Shown here: positions 5,474-18,854 of the stretch, in pieces
How positions within the stretch are numbered: position 1 is the first letter of the stretch
Layout of the letters: each line of letters starts with the position of its first letter
Source: an uncultured Bdellovibrionales bacterium
GTDB lineage: Bacteria > Patescibacteriota > Minisyncoccia > Moranbacterales > UBA1568
Assembly: GCA_964515255.1 (NCBI GenBank)
Contig: CAZETL010000002.1
Span: 1-33,390, forward strand
Direction of reading: 5' to 3'
DNA length: 33,390 nucleotides
The notes under the pieces: generated by a model
The model's input: only the letters and a program-made list of their open reading frames with translations
Told to the model about the DNA's origin: nothing
The model's database searches: none
Position numbers and translations under genes: made by a program

Positions 5474-6823
5474 ATGGCAAAAGGAATGAAGAGTTTTTCA
5501 GGGTTTGGCAACGTCGCCTTCATTGTACTGGCGCTTGTTGCGGGAGTCGGGGGTTTCGCTATGGCATCTCAGGTGCGGGCGCAAGTGGATGCATGTAGCC
5601 TCCCTGGATTCGGTCCGTGCCCGAGCGGGGATTCTGGAGATTATGGCGGTACGGTGAATTCAACCGAATCGTGCGGACCGGCAATGAATCAGAAGTACGT
5701 CCAGAAGCCTCCAGAGAGCGCGCTTTGCAAGCCCGATTCGACTCTTGAAGAATTCAAGAGGGTTGACATGGAGATTTATCAAGGTGCAGTGCAGGGTTCG
5801 AAAAATCGCTGGAACTGGTATTGCAGGAAGCCGGGTCTTGTGTCGGTGTGTTGGGCGACAGCCGGATCCTTTGCTGAGTCGGCCGGGCCGACCAACTGGT
5901 GCGGGTCTGCGAATGGAAAATCAATATCCGGGCCGCCTTCGAGAGAGCAGCTGTGCGCATCTGGCGCTTCTGCGACCGGAAACCCGACCCAAAAGGTTGC
6001 CACGAAGGAAGATTCTTGCGGGGGATTCGTATGGGTTTGCATGGGGTCCGACGGTTTTGTCAATCGGTGCGAGTCGATTGATCCGATATGGCAGAATGTG
6101 CTCAGGTATAGCGCTTGCATTCCGAAGGCATTAGGATCTTCCACGAGCGAGACAGGCGGCGGCAAATCGGATACGGGTCTTGTCTATAGTCCCCCCAAAA
6201 TCAAAATCGACGGCTTCTGCGGCAATGCCGCCCGGAACTATGGCGAAGGCGAAACGGCTTTCTCCGGCTCTCTCTGCTACACCGGGCTTCCCGATCCGAT
6301 CAATCCGACCTTTCCATCAATGAACGGTTCATCCTCATGGTCCTGCACGGGACTCACCGGAGGAAATGTCTCAAGCCTCTGCACGGCGACAAGAGGAACG
6401 CAAGCCCCGGGAGCCGGAGTCCCTTCTACTTGCTCGGTTTATACGAGCGCAAGCTCCTCAATTCCCGAGGGTTACGGATCCCCATTCAACCAGCTTTCCT
6501 CGGCAAAGGAATCTCTCCTCTCGGTAAATTGTTCTTCGTCCGGAGCGATTGCCACGGCCGGATCTCAGAACACCTATGTCTACAAAACGGGATTTGTTTC
6601 CCGGAACGGCCAGTGGGAAAAGATCGACTTTTCCGGAAACCCGGATCTCAATAATGAGGGATGGTTTGCCGGAAGTTCCCTTGCTAATCTCCCGGCAAGC
6701 AATGGAAACCAGAACTTCGTCATCGCGTTCGTCTGCCAGTACTCGAACGGATCTTGGAAGTGCGGATGCCGAGACGGCGCGTGCACCCAGAATTACTGGA
6801 CCCTCCAAGCGTACAAGAAGTAG
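5474..6823 (+). CDS. Exported Cys-rich repeat protein, paralog A (signal peptide, 3 four-Cys modules, conserved C-terminal domain)
   Basis: Signal peptide ...FAMASQVRA|QVD. Modules of the form CGxANG..LC..G..WxWxC..C. The last ~211 aa are identical to paralog B. Confidence 0.8.
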   Translation: MAKGMKSFSGFGNVAFIVLALVAGVGGFAMASQVRAQVDACSLPGFGPCPSGDSGDYGGTVNSTESCGPAMNQKYVQKPPESALCKPDSTLEEFKRVDMEIYQGAVQGSKNRWNWYCRKPGLVSVCWATAGSFAESAGPTNWCGSANGKSISGPPSREQLCASGASATGNPTQKVATKEDSCGGFVWVCMGSDGFVNRCESIDPIWQNVLRYSACIPKALGSSTSETGGGKSDTGLVYSPPKIKIDGFCGNAARNYGEGETAFSGSLCYTGLPDPINPTFPSMNGSSSWSCTGLTGGNVSSLCTATRGTQAPGAGVPSTCSVYTSASSSIPEGYGSPFNQLSSAKESLLSVNCSSSGAIATAGSQNTYVYKTGFVSRNGQWEKIDFSGNPDLNNEGWFAGSSLANLPASNGNQNFVIAFVCQYSNGSWKCGCRDGACTQNYWTLQAYKK

Positions 6824-7073
6824 TAACTCCTAAAAGAAACACACAAAAACCCTATGGAAGGATCAACTCGGAGAAAATTGGTCATTACCATCCTTCTCCT
6901 CGGCATAGCGATTGTCGCAGCCCTCGCATTCTATAGCTTTTCCAAGAAAGCCCAGGCTCCCGATCTTCCGACTCCTCCTCCGCTTCCTTCGATGCCAAGC
7001 AATCCCCCGGCAAGTTCAATGAAAGGAGAGCTTCCTCCTCCGCCTCCGGCTCTGCCGAGGTGAGGGGTGGCGA
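6192..7073 (+). repeat. 882-bp direct repeat, copy 1 (3' 632 bp of paralog A, 30-bp spacer, small TM ORF, and 10 bp beyond it)
   Basis: Base-by-base comparison with 8423-9304 at offset 2231. The only mismatch I found is 7052 C vs 9283 T. Confidence 0.9.
6854..7063 (+). CDS. Small single-pass membrane protein with a proline-rich tail (copy 1)
   Basis: 69 aa with TM segment LVITILLLGIAIVAALAFYSF, then PDLPTPPPLPSMPSNPP...ELPPPPPALPR. An identical protein is encoded at 9085-9294. Confidence 0.55.
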   Translation: MEGSTRRKLVITILLLGIAIVAALAFYSFSKKAQAPDLPTPPPLPSMPSNPPASSMKGELPPPPPALPR

Positions 7074-7119
7074 TAGTGTATAATGATATAAAATCAAAAG
7101 TGATATTTTATAAAAAATT

Positions 7120-9054
7120 ATGCAGAAATATTTCTCTTACCAGGAAAGGAAAATCAAGTATCCTCATAGACTTTTTTGGGCAATCGTTTTTGTCTTGACT
7201 TTTGGAGTATTCTCTTTTCCAGGCTATTCGGATGCAGCAGTATCGTGCGGCGGCTCGAAGTGGACATGTTCTCAGGGAACCGCAAATGGTCTTGGATACA
7301 CCGGATGTTCCGATTCCGGATGGCGAGGGAATTCAAGTTCAGGAAATAGTTACGGAGCCATTTGGGATTGCGTCGGACCAGATGCCTATAGAGGGGAGAC
7401 TGTAAGTTGTTTTTCTGCGGAAACGCCCCCGCAAAAATGTCCTCCGGATCCAGTTGAATACCCGAGAGGAACTGCGAATCCTCCTCTCGGGAATCTTGAC
7501 AAAGCGGACTGTACGTCTATGTCGGGCGTGGGATATGACCCAGACCATGCTGCGGCAGGTACATACGCTGATTTCACAGTCCAGTTTTTTGATGGACCGA
7601 GGGAGGGAAATAAGCTGATTGGTTCCGTGGGGACGAGTTCGACAGGGCCGCTTTATATGAGGAAGTTCACTTTCTCTACGCCGAATTCAGTGAAAGATGG
7701 CAAAGCCCATACCGTGTATGCTTATGGCGTTGACATCGAAACGGGAGTATTGGGGCAGGTATTTGCTGTTCCGCAAGCATTGAATTGTGCAGCTGTTCCT
7801 GGCGGCGGTTCTGGTGGCGGTTCGGGAGGAGGCTCCGCCTCTTGCGGTTCTGCGAATGGGAGTACTATCCCCGCGCGAGGTCCGGAATGGAGCCAGCTTT
7901 GCGCGAATTCGGCGGAACCGATAAATTTCTCGGCAAGGAATAACGGAAGCGGGTTCTGGGACGGATGGAAGTGGAATTGCGGGAATAATGCTTGCTCGGC
8001 AAACCTTTCCCCAGGGGAATGCGGAACGGCAAATGGAACAAGTCGCGCGTCGGCGCCTTCGACAGTCGGCGAGCTCTGCAAGTCGGGCGTTGCAACGTCC
8101 GTTTCGGGCTCGGGACCTTGGACATGGTCTTGCACAGGAAGAACTTGCTCTGCTAATAAATCAGGCGGGACTGGCGGCGGTGAATCCCGAGACTGGTGCG
8201 GTTTGGCAAATGGCGGAACGTTCTCGACGGAGCCGTCCGGCAGCCAGCTATGCGCTTCGGGCGCGACTTTGGATGGATCAGTGACATACCAGGCGCCATT
8301 TGCTCCAAATCCCTCTGGGAGCTGGAGATGGTCGTGCAGGGGATCGAATGGCAATGTGTCAGCATGCTGGGCAAATAGCTCGTCTTCGCAAGGAGGAGGG
8401 AGCGGTGGAACTGGCAGTGGCGCCCCCAAAATCAAAATCGACGGCTTCTGCGGCAATGCCGCCCGGAACTATGGCGAAGGCGAAACGGCTTTCTCCGGCT
8501 CTCTCTGCTACACCGGGCTTCCCGATCCGATCAATCCGACCTTTCCATCAATGAACGGTTCATCCTCATGGTCCTGCACGGGACTCACCGGAGGAAATGT
8601 CTCAAGCCTCTGCACGGCGACAAGAGGAACGCAAGCCCCGGGAGCCGGAGTCCCTTCTACTTGCTCGGTTTATACGAGCGCAAGCTCCTCAATTCCCGAG
8701 GGTTACGGATCCCCATTCAACCAGCTTTCCTCGGCAAAGGAATCTCTCCTCTCGGTAAATTGTTCTTCGTCCGGAGCGATTGCCACGGCCGGATCTCAGA
8801 ACACCTATGTCTACAAAACGGGATTTGTTTCCCGGAACGGCCAGTGGGAAAAGATCGACTTTTCCGGAAACCCGGATCTCAATAATGAGGGATGGTTTGC
8901 CGGAAGTTCCCTTGCTAATCTCCCGGCAAGCAATGGAAACCAGAACTTCGTCATCGCGTTCGTCTGCCAGTACTCGAACGGATCTTGGAAGTGCGGATGC
9001 CGAGACGGCGCGTGCACCCAGAATTACTGGACCCTCCAAGCGTACAAGAAGTAG
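7120..9054 (+). CDS. Exported Cys-rich repeat protein, paralog B (signal peptide, beta-sandwich-like insert, 4 four-Cys modules, conserved C-terminal domain)
   Basis: Signal peptide ...FPGYSDA|AVS, GGGSGGGSGGGS linkers and four tandem CGxANG..LC..WxWxC..C modules. The C-terminal 211 aa are identical to paralog A. Confidence 0.8.
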   Translation: MQKYFSYQERKIKYPHRLFWAIVFVLTFGVFSFPGYSDAAVSCGGSKWTCSQGTANGLGYTGCSDSGWRGNSSSGNSYGAIWDCVGPDAYRGETVSCFSAETPPQKCPPDPVEYPRGTANPPLGNLDKADCTSMSGVGYDPDHAAAGTYADFTVQFFDGPREGNKLIGSVGTSSTGPLYMRKFTFSTPNSVKDGKAHTVYAYGVDIETGVLGQVFAVPQALNCAAVPGGGSGGGSGGGSASCGSANGSTIPARGPEWSQLCANSAEPINFSARNNGSGFWDGWKWNCGNNACSANLSPGECGTANGTSRASAPSTVGELCKSGVATSVSGSGPWTWSCTGRTCSANKSGGTGGGESRDWCGLANGGTFSTEPSGSQLCASGATLDGSVTYQAPFAPNPSGSWRWSCRGSNGNVSACWANSSSSQGGGSGGTGSGAPKIKIDGFCGNAARNYGEGETAFSGSLCYTGLPDPINPTFPSMNGSSSWSCTGLTGGNVSSLCTATRGTQAPGAGVPSTCSVYTSASSSIPEGYGSPFNQLSSAKESLLSVNCSSSGAIATAGSQNTYVYKTGFVSRNGQWEKIDFSGNPDLNNEGWFAGSSLANLPASNGNQNFVIAFVCQYSNGSWKCGCRDGACTQNYWTLQAYKK

Positions 9055-9304
9055 TAACTCCTAAAAGAAACACACAAAAACCCTATGGAAGGATCAACTC
9101 GGAGAAAATTGGTCATTACCATCCTTCTCCTCGGCATAGCGATTGTCGCAGCCCTCGCATTCTATAGCTTTTCCAAGAAAGCCCAGGCTCCCGATCTTCC
9201 GACTCCTCCTCCGCTTCCTTCGATGCCAAGCAATCCCCCGGCAAGTTCAATGAAAGGAGAGCTTCCTCCTCCGCCTCCGGCTTTGCCGAGGTGAGGGGTG
9301 GCGA
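8423..9304 (+). repeat. 882-bp direct repeat, copy 2 (3' end of paralog B plus the small TM ORF)
   Basis: Same comparison. Identical shadow ORFs in several frames of the ORF track confirm the identity. Confidence 0.9.
9085..9294 (+). CDS. Small single-pass membrane protein with a proline-rich tail (copy 2)
   Basis: Protein identical to 6854-7063, with one synonymous CTG/TTG difference at 9283. Confidence 0.55.
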   Translation: MEGSTRRKLVITILLLGIAIVAALAFYSFSKKAQAPDLPTPPPLPSMPSNPPASSMKGELPPPPPALPR

Positions 9305-9326: not shown

Positions 9327-10526
9327 ATGGGAATGACGAATATAAAATTCAGGAATATTTTCTTTCTCTTGGCTTTCCTTGTAGGTACGCTGTTTCCCTT
9401 TGGCTCCTCGTTTGCTCAGTCGATAGACGATGAATTCTCGTCGCGTGCCGCACAGGTTGCTCTTGATGCTTTTCGGCTGGCACTCGAAAGCATGAAAGGC
9501 GATGGGTCGGTGAGCGAACTTTGTTCAAAAGTGGATGCAAGGTGTGATGGAGAGAAAAAAGAGGCTCGAGGGAAGAACTCGTCTGGTGATTTTGTTGCAG
9601 TTTTTCTTGATGATTCCGATGAGCAGCTTGGTTGCGGTGACGGTGTTGCGAAGATCCGATTTATTCGCGTCGAGGGGAGTTTTGCGAACAGCACCCGAGT
9701 GCTTGGAGCGAGGATATCTTTCAGGGAGGAATCTGTTGCAAAATGCGGATCTGCAAATGGATCGTCCTACGAGAATTCGCATATCCCAGAGGCGGATTTG
9801 TGTGAAAAGGGGTCTCCGAGTCCCATTGCAAAATCGAGTGACGGGAAACAGTGGGTATGGCTTTGTATAGCAGGAGACGCCAATGTCTCATGCTCGGCGA
9901 GCGTCATCGATACGAACGGTCTCGCGGGGAAGTGCGGAGATGCCGCGAAAGAGTATCTGCCCGAGGAGAGCGTTTTTTCAGGGCCGTTTTGTTCCAAAGG
10001 AAACTCTCGTCCGGTGGACATAGCTTTCCCGGTTCCAGGAGCATCGGTATCGTGGCGCTGCGTATCGGACGGGTATGAATCGGAGGCTTGCATCGCAAGG
10101 CGTCGATCCTCCGGCTCCACAAATGACTGCTCGCTCATTTCCGATCCGTTCGGAATTCCTGATGGATACGGGCCGCCGTTCAATATGCTCTCATCTGCAC
10201 AGGAACCAGTTCTTACTGTTTCATGCGATCCGGGGAACATTCGAGCGACGGCAGGGAGTTCAACGGCTCAAACATTCGTCTACAATAAGGGGTTTGTATA
10301 TGCGGGAGGCTCATGGCAAAGCATTTCTTTTTCAGGGATGAATGCTACGGGGAATCCGGGGTGGCTTTCGGGTAAGGCGAATTCCTCTCTTCTTCCCGAA
10401 GCGACGGGCGGGGCGGGAAATTTTGTTATTGCCTTTGTCTGTCAATACGTCGAGAATTCCTGGAAGTGCGGATGTCGAGATAAGGCATGCGCCAATAGCT
10501 TTTGGACTCTTCAGAAATACAAGTGA
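9327..10526 (+). CDS. Exported Cys-rich repeat protein, paralog C (divergent). The ORF is open from GTG 9291; ATG 9327 is preferred
   Basis: From ATG 9327 the N-terminus MGMTNIKFRNIFFLLAFLVGTLFPFGSSFA|QS is a signal peptide. It has two 4-Cys modules and a C-terminal domain sharing NFVIAFVCQY..SWKCGCRD.AC..WTLQ.YK with A and B. Confidence 0.78.
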   Translation: MGMTNIKFRNIFFLLAFLVGTLFPFGSSFAQSIDDEFSSRAAQVALDAFRLALESMKGDGSVSELCSKVDARCDGEKKEARGKNSSGDFVAVFLDDSDEQLGCGDGVAKIRFIRVEGSFANSTRVLGARISFREESVAKCGSANGSSYENSHIPEADLCEKGSPSPIAKSSDGKQWVWLCIAGDANVSCSASVIDTNGLAGKCGDAAKEYLPEESVFSGPFCSKGNSRPVDIAFPVPGASVSWRCVSDGYESEACIARRRSSGSTNDCSLISDPFGIPDGYGPPFNMLSSAQEPVLTVSCDPGNIRATAGSSTAQTFVYNKGFVYAGGSWQSISFSGMNATGNPGWLSGKANSSLLPEATGGAGNFVIAFVCQYVENSWKCGCRDKACANSFWTLQKYK

Positions 10527-17429: not shown

Positions 17430-18854
17430 ATGTCAAGATTCTACATTACGACCGCCATTGATTACGTGAATGCGAAGCCGCACGTGGGGCATGCGCTCGA
17501 GAAAGTTCTCGCAGATACTATTGCACGCTTCCACCGCCTGTCCGGAAAGGAAACCTTTTTTCTCACCGGGTCGGACGAAAACAGCCTCAAGAATGTGCAG
17601 GCCGCAGAGAAGGCAGGAGTTCAGACAAAAGAGTTTGTCGATGCCATCGTGCTCGACTGGAAAGGTTTGCGATCCGTTCTGAATCTTTCTTTCGACGAGT
17701 TTATTCGAACAACGGAAGAGAGGCATTTCGCAGGCGCGCAAAAACTTTGGTCTTGTTTCAAATCGGACGACATCTATCGAAAGCGCTATTCCGGGCTTTA
17801 CTGCGTCGGCTGCGAAGAATATAAATTGCCGAAGGATTTGATCGAAGGAAAGTGTCCGGATCACAAGAAAGCGCCAGAACATGTGGAAGAAGAGAATTAT
17901 TTCTTCCGCCTTTCTTCATACGCGGATATTTTGAAAAAGAAAATAGAGAGTGGAGAACTCAGAATTCTTCCTGAATTTCGAAGAAACGAGATGCTTTCGT
18001 TTATCGAGATGGGACTTGAAGATTTCTCAATTTCGCGATCCGTTGATCGGGCAAAAGGCTGGGGCGTTCCTGTTCCAGGCGACCCGTCACAGATTATGTA
18101 CGTTTGGGTGGACGCGCTTTCGAACTACATTACGGCGCTTGACTATGCTGGAGACGGGGCGCTCTATGAAAAATTTTGGGCGGGTGACGGAGATCGAGTC
18201 CATGTGATCGGAAAGGGAATCCTTCGGTTCCATGCGATTTATTGGCCGGCAATGCTTCTCTCGGCCAAACTGCCGCTGCCGACGACTATCTATGCGCATG
18301 AATACCTTACGGTTGAGGGGCAGAAAATATCGAAATCGATCGGGAATACTATTGATCCAGCTGATCTCGTGGAAGCATATGGCATCGATGGAACGCGATA
18401 TCTTCTTACTGCGAGTTTGCCATATATGAAGGATGGGGATATATCCCGAAAGAGGCTTACGGAAAAATATAACTCGGATCTTGCAAACGGACTCGGGAAC
18501 CTTGTCTCGCGAGTGATGAAACTCGGCGAAAAAATGGATTCTCGCGAAGAAAGCGTTGATGAGCGCGGATTTCCGGAAGAGTTTTCGGGACTGATACAGC
18601 AATATCGTCTCAGTGAAGCGCTTGAGTATGTCTGGGATATTGTCCGCGCAAGCAACCAGTATATAGAGGAGACGAAGCCGTGGGAACTTGCAAAGACAAA
18701 TCCGAAGGAATTTGAAATCGTTATGAGAAAACTCTTCCGGGATCTTGCGCGAATTGCGGCGCTTATCGCTCCTTTCATGCCGGAGACATCTGAGAGATTG
18801 CAGTCGATGCTTGCCGCTCGGAAGGGGGGCATCCTTTTTCAGAGGATTCAATAG
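17430..18854 (+). CDS. metG: Methionine--tRNA ligase (short form, no C-terminal tRNA-binding domain)
   Basis: HIGH-type motif KPHVGHA, KMSKS-type motif KISKS and a Zn-knuckle-like CVGCEE...CPDH. Confidence 0.9.
   Translation: MSRFYITTAIDYVNAKPHVGHALEKVLADTIARFHRLSGKETFFLTGSDENSLKNVQAAEKAGVQTKEFVDAIVLDWKGLRSVLNLSFDEFIRTTEERHFAGAQKLWSCFKSDDIYRKRYSGLYCVGCEEYKLPKDLIEGKCPDHKKAPEHVEEENYFFRLSSYADILKKKIESGELRILPEFRRNEMLSFIEMGLEDFSISRSVDRAKGWGVPVPGDPSQIMYVWVDALSNYITALDYAGDGALYEKFWAGDGDRVHVIGKGILRFHAIYWPAMLLSAKLPLPTTIYAHEYLTVEGQKISKSIGNTIDPADLVEAYGIDGTRYLLTASLPYMKDGDISRKRLTEKYNSDLANGLGNLVSRVMKLGEKMDSREESVDERGFPEEFSGLIQQYRLSEALEYVWDIVRASNQYIEETKPWELAKTNPKEFEIVMRKLFRDLARIAALIAPFMPETSERLQSMLAARKGGILFQRIQ

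Follow-up and report, generated by a model that had tools for sequence, protein, structure and literature searches.

How do two neighbouring genes whose 5′ parts are unrelated in DNA come to share their 3′ ends, and the small gene behind them, almost base for base? The question is raised by a stretch of 33,390 nucleotides (contig CAZETL010000002.1 of assembly GCA_964515255.1, positions 1 to 33,390), the whole of which is referred to as the window. It comes from an uncultured Moranbacteria-like bacterium from sludge, a member of the Candidate Phyla Radiation (CPR; Patescibacteria). Two paralogous genes for secreted, cysteine-rich proteins, A and B, stand in tandem and end in the two copies of an 882-bp direct repeat, referred to below as the cassette, in which a complete small gene is included. 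The repeat is a real two-copy feature of the chromosome, and the identity of its copies is very probably the result of gene conversion, apparently recurrent, between cassettes that both genes already carried, and not of a new duplication.

A base-by-base comparison of the window with itself at an offset of 2231 finds positions 6192-7073 (copy 1) and 8423-9304 (copy 2) identical at 881 of 882 bases; these and all features of the window given below are on the forward strand. The one differing site, C at 7052 and T at 9283, is the 22nd base counted from the 3′ end of the repeat and reads CTG in one copy and TTG in the other, both leucine, at residue 67 of the small open reading frame (ORF). On the 5′ side the identity starts within the codon preceding PKIKIDGFCGN, right after Gly/Ser-rich linkers that are unrelated between A and B, and on the 3′ side it stops 10 bases past the TGA of the small ORF. 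Beyond both boundaries the match falls at once to the level of chance, 8-18 of 50 bases. No nucleotide similarity is seen between the N-terminal regions of A and B, and their protein identity of 33-44% extends over single four-cysteine modules only. A repeat search of the window recovered the same pair, there as 300 nt, and no other long repeat. An earlier, sequence-only reading of the same letters had claimed the near-perfect repeat, its synonymous leucine difference, its boundaries at the glycine-rich linker and just beyond the small ORF, and the lack of DNA likeness between A and B outside it; direct comparison of bases and codons bears out each of these points.

Gene A (5474..6823) encodes a secreted protein of 449 amino acids with 22 cysteines, an exact match to which is on record in NCBI. 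An N-terminal signal or transmembrane segment and a variable region with four-cysteine modules (5474-6191) precede the cassette. Copy 1 supplies the last four-cysteine module and the C-terminal domain of ∼135 residues (to 6823), and continues through a 30-bp spacer, the small gene (6854..7063), and 10 bp past its stop codon. The 69 residues encoded by the small gene begin with a basic N-terminus, pass through a single transmembrane helix, and end in a proline-rich tail (PPPLP...NPP...PPPPPALP). Between the copies lies a unique spacer (7074..8422, 1349 bp), made up of an AT-rich intergenic stretch and, from 7120, the N-terminal region of B. Gene B (7120..9054) encodes a secreted protein of 644 amino acids, with 30 cysteines by translation and module scan, arranged as a signal peptide, a variable region with three clear four-cysteine modules, a Gly/Ser linker, and the cassette; the protein encoded by its small partner gene (9085..9294) is identical to that of copy 1. 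A third paralog, gene C (9327..10526), lies outside the repeat and encodes 399 amino acids from the ATG at 9327, in a frame open from a GTG at 9291; the form on record (P0005) also has 399 residues. It has the C-terminal architecture of A and B and no small ORF downstream, and its 45% amino-acid identity to the cassette agrees with the sequence-only claim that it shares the domain at a roughly half-identical protein level.

The most direct alternative to conversion is one recent segmental duplication or domain swap without ongoing conversion, in which illegitimate or unequal recombination, for instance, would have placed a single copy of a cassette and its small gene after another N-terminal region. 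The identity of the copies would then reflect the youth of a single event. In keeping with this, the identity spans the whole shared unit and ends abruptly, with no older zone of lower similarity beyond it. The closest genome with the cassette protein family, a complete 1.05-Mb Candidatus Moraniibacteriota metagenome-assembled genome (MAG; CP064994.1, L058 among the related loci), also has a single large gene with its small ORF before the C homologue, and the second unit in the window could be an addition.

What decides between the two is the age of the joins between cassette and N-terminal region. A 1344-bp ENA contig (L007; assembly ERZ27309396) holds gene A of a diverged strain, with the cassette attached at the same junction. 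Its cassette aligns to that of the window without gaps and differs at 87-88 of 874 aligned positions (89.9% identity), with 68 of the 87 differences found by direct count being synonymous; its N-terminal part and linker are more diverged from the window than its cassette. Another contig (L008), from another species, contains an orthologue of B (P0011, 619 aa), with an N-terminal region at 64% amino-acid and 67% nucleotide identity to that of B, a cassette at 69.5% nucleotide identity to that of the window, and a small ORF next to it. Since a diverged A carries the cassette in one lineage and a diverged B carries it in another, each at the same junction, both fusions are far older than the present identity of A and B, and neither of them is new in the window. 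The cassettes must then have been homogenised after the fusions, which is gene conversion and not recent duplication. Consistent with this, the identity between the paralogs (99.9%) is far above that between orthologues (90% and 70%), synonymous sites included. The single difference in 882 bp leaves the 30-bp spacer and the 10 bp after the stop codon identical as well, and because synonymous and non-coding sites are affected in the same way, the homogenisation is not explained by purifying selection. The comparison shows joins that appear ancient and a homogenisation that appears recent. The sequence-only reading had proposed either a recent conversion or a segmental duplication of a constant cassette; this proposal is supported, and the older joins in L007 and L008 favor the former. 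A single duplication is therefore unlikely, although it would differ little in outcome from one conversion event.

Strain alleles of the cassette, which differ from that of the window mostly at synonymous sites, extend the comparison to other samples. The A/B locus recurs in metagenomes of sludge or wastewater, in more than 17 runs that come from about ten studies; runs are cited as X1-X17, and the read-level data are Logan contigs built at k = 31. In X1 and X3 the repeat is perfect, forming one 882-nt node with no difference from copy 2. In X9 and in the related contig L006 the cassette has C at 6369 and at 6793 and thus differs from the window at two sites; the mean depth of the X9 contig, 11.4, fits a two-fold cassette in a genome at ∼8.8. 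An allele with eight changes between 6708 and 6793 (8v) recurs in three runs. In X13 its exit is to the sequence that precedes B (contig 6192-7181), and a single node is the end point of both entry contigs, that from A and that from B; in X14 the contig that enters it comes from the N-terminal region of B (7767-9182); and in X10 its exit is to gene C. The eight variants in X10 were considered as possible copies from paralog C, an origin that was rejected as only one of them matches C. A further allele (14v), found in X15, follows a single path around the loop of cassette and spacer, with 14 changes, 11 of them synonymous, that are confined to the cassette and leave the 1349-bp spacer as in the window; L007 has the same base at six of the 14, compared with about one expected by chance, an expectation that is a rough estimate and not a computed value. 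The site at which the two copies of the window differ is itself polymorphic among samples, with C at 9283 in X12 and X6 and at the corresponding site of L007.

Bubbles of similar depth are retained in the contigs of X6 and X17. Since both branches are kept in these runs, the single paths in X10, X13, X14, and X15 suggest that the two copies carry the same allele. The 8v and 14v paths are entered from A and B and leave to the region upstream of B and to gene C, in contigs that come from mixed populations and are unphased. Variation between strains exceeds variation within a genome. The apparent sharing of an allele by both copies of each strain suggests recurrent conversion and concerted evolution, on evidence that is strong but indirect. 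A single old duplication would have left later mutations in one copy, in contrast with the strain-specific alleles seen in both copy contexts.

The small-ORF part of the cassette shows an additional bubble in X17 (6919-7023 / 9150-9254), with a window-like branch at depth 16.8 and another at 10.5. The second branch has 19 differences, 16 of which are common to L007. The depths of the two branches sum to more than that of the upstream cassette node (17.1); the excess may come from a further copy or from another strain with only the small-ORF part.

The following mechanism would account for these observations. A and B would each have borne a cassette of their own long before the present identity, and the cassettes would then have been homogenised by homologous, presumably RecA-dependent, gene conversion between tandem direct repeats. 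Heteroduplex would form only where A and B align, and the tract would run from the first to nearly the last homologous base. A tract limited by the extent of homology explains why the identity stops sharply at the linker and 10 bp past the small gene. The first and last differences between the cassettes of L007 and the window fall at 6223 and 7024; all three sequences (A, B, and L007) agree over the outer 31 bases on one side and at least 41 on the other, which would supply the homologous ends of a conversion tract. Conversion appears to be recurrent, as the same allele is reached from A and from B in each strain. A likely consequence, perhaps a selected one, would be that the N-terminal heads diverge while the small partner and the end of the proteins that serves anchoring or interaction stay co-adapted and interchangeable.

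A second alternative gives the cassette an active part in variation. The constant cassette would serve as a recombination handle for switching N-terminal heads in the manner of antigenic variation, through deletion or duplication between the direct repeats or through import from other strains. Across the family, unrelated N-terminal regions do meet the cassette at the same point, and strain variation in large cysteine-rich extracellular proteins of CPR bacteria was noted earlier (PMC4736985). Gene A is also a mosaic in X15, being L007-like at 5560-5761 and window-like up to 6127, after which a 67-nt L007-like linker replaces 6128-6191 and joins the same cassette start; X5 and X17 contain this linker too, as a loose end. 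To judge from these mosaics, lineages evidently recombine often at the A/B locus. The sequence-only reading had looked to strain variants for other N-terminal regions joined to the same cassette. None were found, and what the samples hold instead is several cassette alleles, each apparently in both copies, along with the alternative linker and mosaic N-terminal region of gene A.

Several observations speak against switching of this kind. Both A and B are complete genes that have start codons and signal peptides of their own, and silent promoterless cassettes are absent; for this reason the locus was rejected as an antigenic-variation cassette locus. The spacer is about as deep as its flanks, with no sizeable spacer-deleted subpopulation visible, and only two entries into the cassette are seen. 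According to gene calls and Pfam scans of its ORFs, the window holds housekeeping genes and no recombinase, invertase, or reverse transcriptase, and no recA. A repeat search found no inverted repeats of at least 40 nt anywhere in the window. An origin of the repeat from a mobile element, an invertase, or a diversity-generating retroelement was rejected on these grounds, and in the case of the retroelement also because the repeat belongs to the constant part of the genes and its copies differ only by one C/T mismatch. Programmed switching of heads is accordingly very improbable. A related and broader idea is that the cassette is a portable anchoring module whose identity is actively maintained as a handle for swapping heads between paralogs and strains. 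This is a speculative and rather unlikely possibility; if true, the locus would represent a population-level head-shuffling system for the host attachment proteins of an episymbiotic CPR bacterium.

All readings considered so far take both copies to be real. In a k = 31 graph, a perfect repeat is expected to form its own node with summed depth. In X1 the 882-nt repeat node has a k-mer depth of 31.2, compared with 12.9 on the A side, 11.5 in the spacer, and 14.3 on the C side; in X3 the corresponding values are 19.5, 8.8, 10.5, and 11.4. The repeat stands at 17.1 against flanks of ∼6.7 in X17, and at 17.3 against flanks of 10-12 and a spacer of 11.9 in X6. A check of coverage, which the sequence-only reading had asked for, thus finds the repeat at about twice the flank depth in X1, X3, and X17 and the spacer at single-copy depth in X1, X3, and X6. 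The flanking contigs of X1 and X3 have their ends at 6221, 7044, 8452, and 9275, each of which lies precisely 30 nt within the repeat. The contig 7044-8452 leaves the cassette, passes the N-terminal region of B, and re-enters the cassette, so that a linear chromosome must traverse the cassette twice, and the single-copy depth of the spacer means that the loop is traversed once. In X15 the loop is one contig of 2261 nt (2231 + 30) with a mean depth of 8.6, which is 1.39 times that of its flanks (5.5-6.3) and is the value predicted by two copies.

The junctions were likewise to be confirmed, and all four are crossed by contigs from other samples, of low coverage, in which the other branch happened to be absent. 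The 5′ junction of copy 1 is crossed by a contig at 4539-6918 in L006 and X9, and its 3′ junction by the X13 contig 6192-7181. For copy 2, the 5′ junction is crossed by the X14 contig 7767-9182, and the 3′ junction by contigs that run from 8423 past 10400 in X10 and X12; in X16 a contig at 7916-9484 contains the entire copy with unique sequence on both sides and zero differences. An assembly artefact, in which a cassette that exists once was placed twice or A-type and B-type strain alleles were joined into a chimeric tandem, would be helped by the coexistence of several strains in the samples and by an 882-bp perfect repeat that short reads cannot bridge, leaving the de Bruijn loop to be resolved by assembler assumption, but it is effectively excluded by the doubled depth of the repeat over a single-copy spacer, the two passes that contig 7044-8452 forces, the contigs across the junctions and over all of copy 2, and the same topology in many runs from different studies and years.

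With the two copies established, recurrent conversion has its own points against it. The evidence consists of Logan contigs and not of raw or long reads; such contigs drop rare variants and may pop bubbles, so that one path is no strict proof that the two copies of a strain match. For copy 1 there is no single contig that extends through the copy into both unique flanks. The depth ratios scatter between 1.6 and 2.6, and a third copy elsewhere in the genome is possible. Recombination between strains, and not conversion inside one genome, may be the source of some strain variants. Attempts to find the B gene that belongs to the L007 lineage were unsuccessful: a protein search with the N-terminal region of B gave only P0011 (64%) and distant four-cysteine proteins, a scan of JGI metagenomes gave distant four-cysteine modules only, and no contigs of that lineage appeared when runs were aligned at 82-84% likeness. 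Finally, the function of the proteins is a matter of inference, as they belong to no Pfam or NCBIfam family and have no significant structural match.

Gene conversion between A and B acts on a protein family whose parts can be traced well beyond the window. The cassette has three parts. The first is the last four-cysteine module (CGNAARNY...FSGSLC...WSC...LC), a type that elsewhere forms arrays with up to 22 matched stretches in other proteins. The second is the C-terminal domain of ∼135 residues, which ends in ...FVCQY..WKCGCRD.AC.QNYWTLQAYKK and occurs at the N- or C-terminus of proteins in 1174 clusters at 50% identity (E ≤ 0.001; 623 clusters at E ≤ 1e-10). Its occurrences are scattered through MAGs labelled Saccharibacteria, Paceibacterota, Peregrinibacteria, and other CPR groups, and are also found in a few labelled proteobacterial or Bdellovibrionales. 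The third is the complete gene for the 69-residue transmembrane, proline-rich protein. In all A/B-type homologues examined, similarity to the cassette begins at cassette residue 2-7, whatever N-terminal region precedes it, and a homologous small ORF follows each of them (L001, L003/L058, L008, L059, and L060). Since the start of the cassette is constant and the small ORF is always next, the boundary of the repeat is the boundary between the constant and variable parts of the whole family. These comparisons show what appears to be a fixed architecture of signal peptide, variable four-cysteine N-terminal region, flexible linker, and constant cassette, and the large gene and the small gene are, on this evidence, a conserved module.

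The order of genes in the Moraniibacteriota relative (L003/L058) is FtsA, a protein of 730 residues, a 77-residue ORF, a C homologue of 410 residues, and FtsZ. A single large gene thus stands at the place of the two in the window, and the orthologue of C occupies the same place as in the window, after the small ORF. The relative harbors the ∼135-residue domain at about nine places (L058, L096, L103-L105, L107, L110, L116, and L125), a large paralog family for a genome of 1.05 Mb. In P0010, an ENA protein of 578 residues, the domain is N-terminal and directly behind the signal peptide; beyond it are a poly-Pro/Gly linker and a long region that was guessed by eye to be a parallel beta-helix. The domain would accordingly seem able to work at either end of a protein. 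The surroundings of the B orthologue in L008 (1-7732) include a helix-turn-helix regulator, an Imm1-like gene, a T4SS_pilin-domain protein, and a Y1 transposase fragment, and the module may be on a mobile or conjugative element there. The L001 contig contains, at 18397-18564 downstream of a Bac_transf gene, tandem 7-nt units (GGCAAGT / AACAAGT and variants).

Even when E-values as high as 10 were admitted, none of A, B, C, and the small ORF had a match at threshold in Pfam-A or NCBIfam, and no sequence match to the cassette domains and proteins was found in the PDB. The AlphaFold model of the cassette is all-beta with a mean pLDDT (the confidence score of the model) of 68. A fold search with this model gave no match at E ≤ 0.001; the best were NEAT, DsbD-N, and other immunoglobulin-like sandwiches, a likeness that is treated as one of generic fold only. 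The small ORF was considered as a type IV pilin on account of a weak N-terminal model match (E = 0.0068) and rejected, since the match is below the cut-off and driven by the transmembrane helix. A and B are putative surface or attachment proteins, which the C-terminal domain and the proline-rich membrane protein would together hold at the envelope.

By its gene content the window is ordinary chromosome. It encodes FtsK, a two-subunit 2-oxoacid:ferredoxin oxidoreductase, tRNA-guanine transglycosylase, ProRS, an M16 peptidase, MetRS, TatD, ZnuABC, NrdD, and an ADP-forming acetyl-CoA synthetase. A scan for promoters and terminators found nothing that exceeded the level of shuffled sequence. The AT-rich segment 7074-7119 follows copy 1 with no gap. 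Within it, 36 nt upstream of the start codon of B, is TGTATAAT, an extended -10-like sequence that the simple promoter scan left unscored; gene B may have its own promoter at TGTATAAT. The sole run labelled as RNA, which also bears the label 'GENOMIC', contains three short contigs of low depth and is uninformative about expression.

The mechanism favored here is well known, and it acts on a protein family for which it has not been described before; a full-text search of the literature found no paper that joins gene conversion, Patescibacteria, and paralogs. The value of the locus is accordingly descriptive rather than conceptual, and lies in an undescribed but widespread CPR module. The locus provides a clean natural example of concerted evolution in a CPR genome of roughly 1 Mb, seen in many independent metagenomes, and indicates that surface-protein loci of such bacteria, uncultured and probably dependent on a host, are actively shaped by homologous recombination. 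A further outcome is the definition of a conserved pair of genes with no entry in Pfam or NCBIfam, one for a modular cysteine-rich secreted protein with the ∼135-residue C-terminal domain and one for a small proline-rich membrane protein. The joint conversion of the domain and the small gene hints at their interaction, perhaps as an anchor for CPR surface proteins.

Among known systems, tufA and tufB of Salmonella enterica are the textbook case of concerted evolution of duplicated bacterial genes by RecA-dependent gene conversion. As with A and B, the two copies in a genome are closer to each other than to their orthologues, at synonymous sites too, identity stops where homology stops, and strain-specific variants are common to both copies, apparently so in the case of A and B. 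In tufA and tufB, however, whole genes that lie far apart are homogenised, whereas here only the 3′ part and the small downstream gene are, the 5′ parts are unrelated, and the copies are in tandem, only 1.35 kb apart.

The babA/babB genes of Helicobacter pylori, like sabA/sabB, encode outer-membrane adhesin paralogs that swap segments by gene conversion. They resemble A and B in a near-identical C-terminal (anchoring) region next to divergent ligand-binding regions, and in conversion that gives rise to strain-specific chimeras. The Bab proteins differ in being beta-barrels encoded at dispersed loci, with conversion that changes the adhesin expressed and is coupled to phase variation. A and B are secreted, cysteine-rich, modular CPR proteins; their conversion tract extends over a partner gene that is separate from them, and there is no sign of an expression switch.

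The cassette systems of antigenic variation, such as Neisseria pilE/pilS, Borrelia vlsE, and Anaplasma msp2, also place constant blocks beside variable parts as recombination substrates among tandem or clustered copies of surface-protein genes. These systems combine one expression site with silent partial cassettes from which the variable part is copied, whereas A and B are both complete genes between which the constant part is copied.

Closest in kind of organism are the Peribacteria, CPR bacteria whose genomes encode large cysteine-rich extracellular proteins in which strain variation is concentrated and for which a role in attachment is proposed (PMC4736985). The available part of that account describes no C-terminal domain of this type, no small proline-rich partner gene, and no conversion between paralogs, and the proteins it covers are far larger than A and B, with an average of ∼1,655 residues. 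They are like A and B in being secreted, cysteine-rich proteins without functional annotation, in a probably symbiotic bacterium with a small genome.

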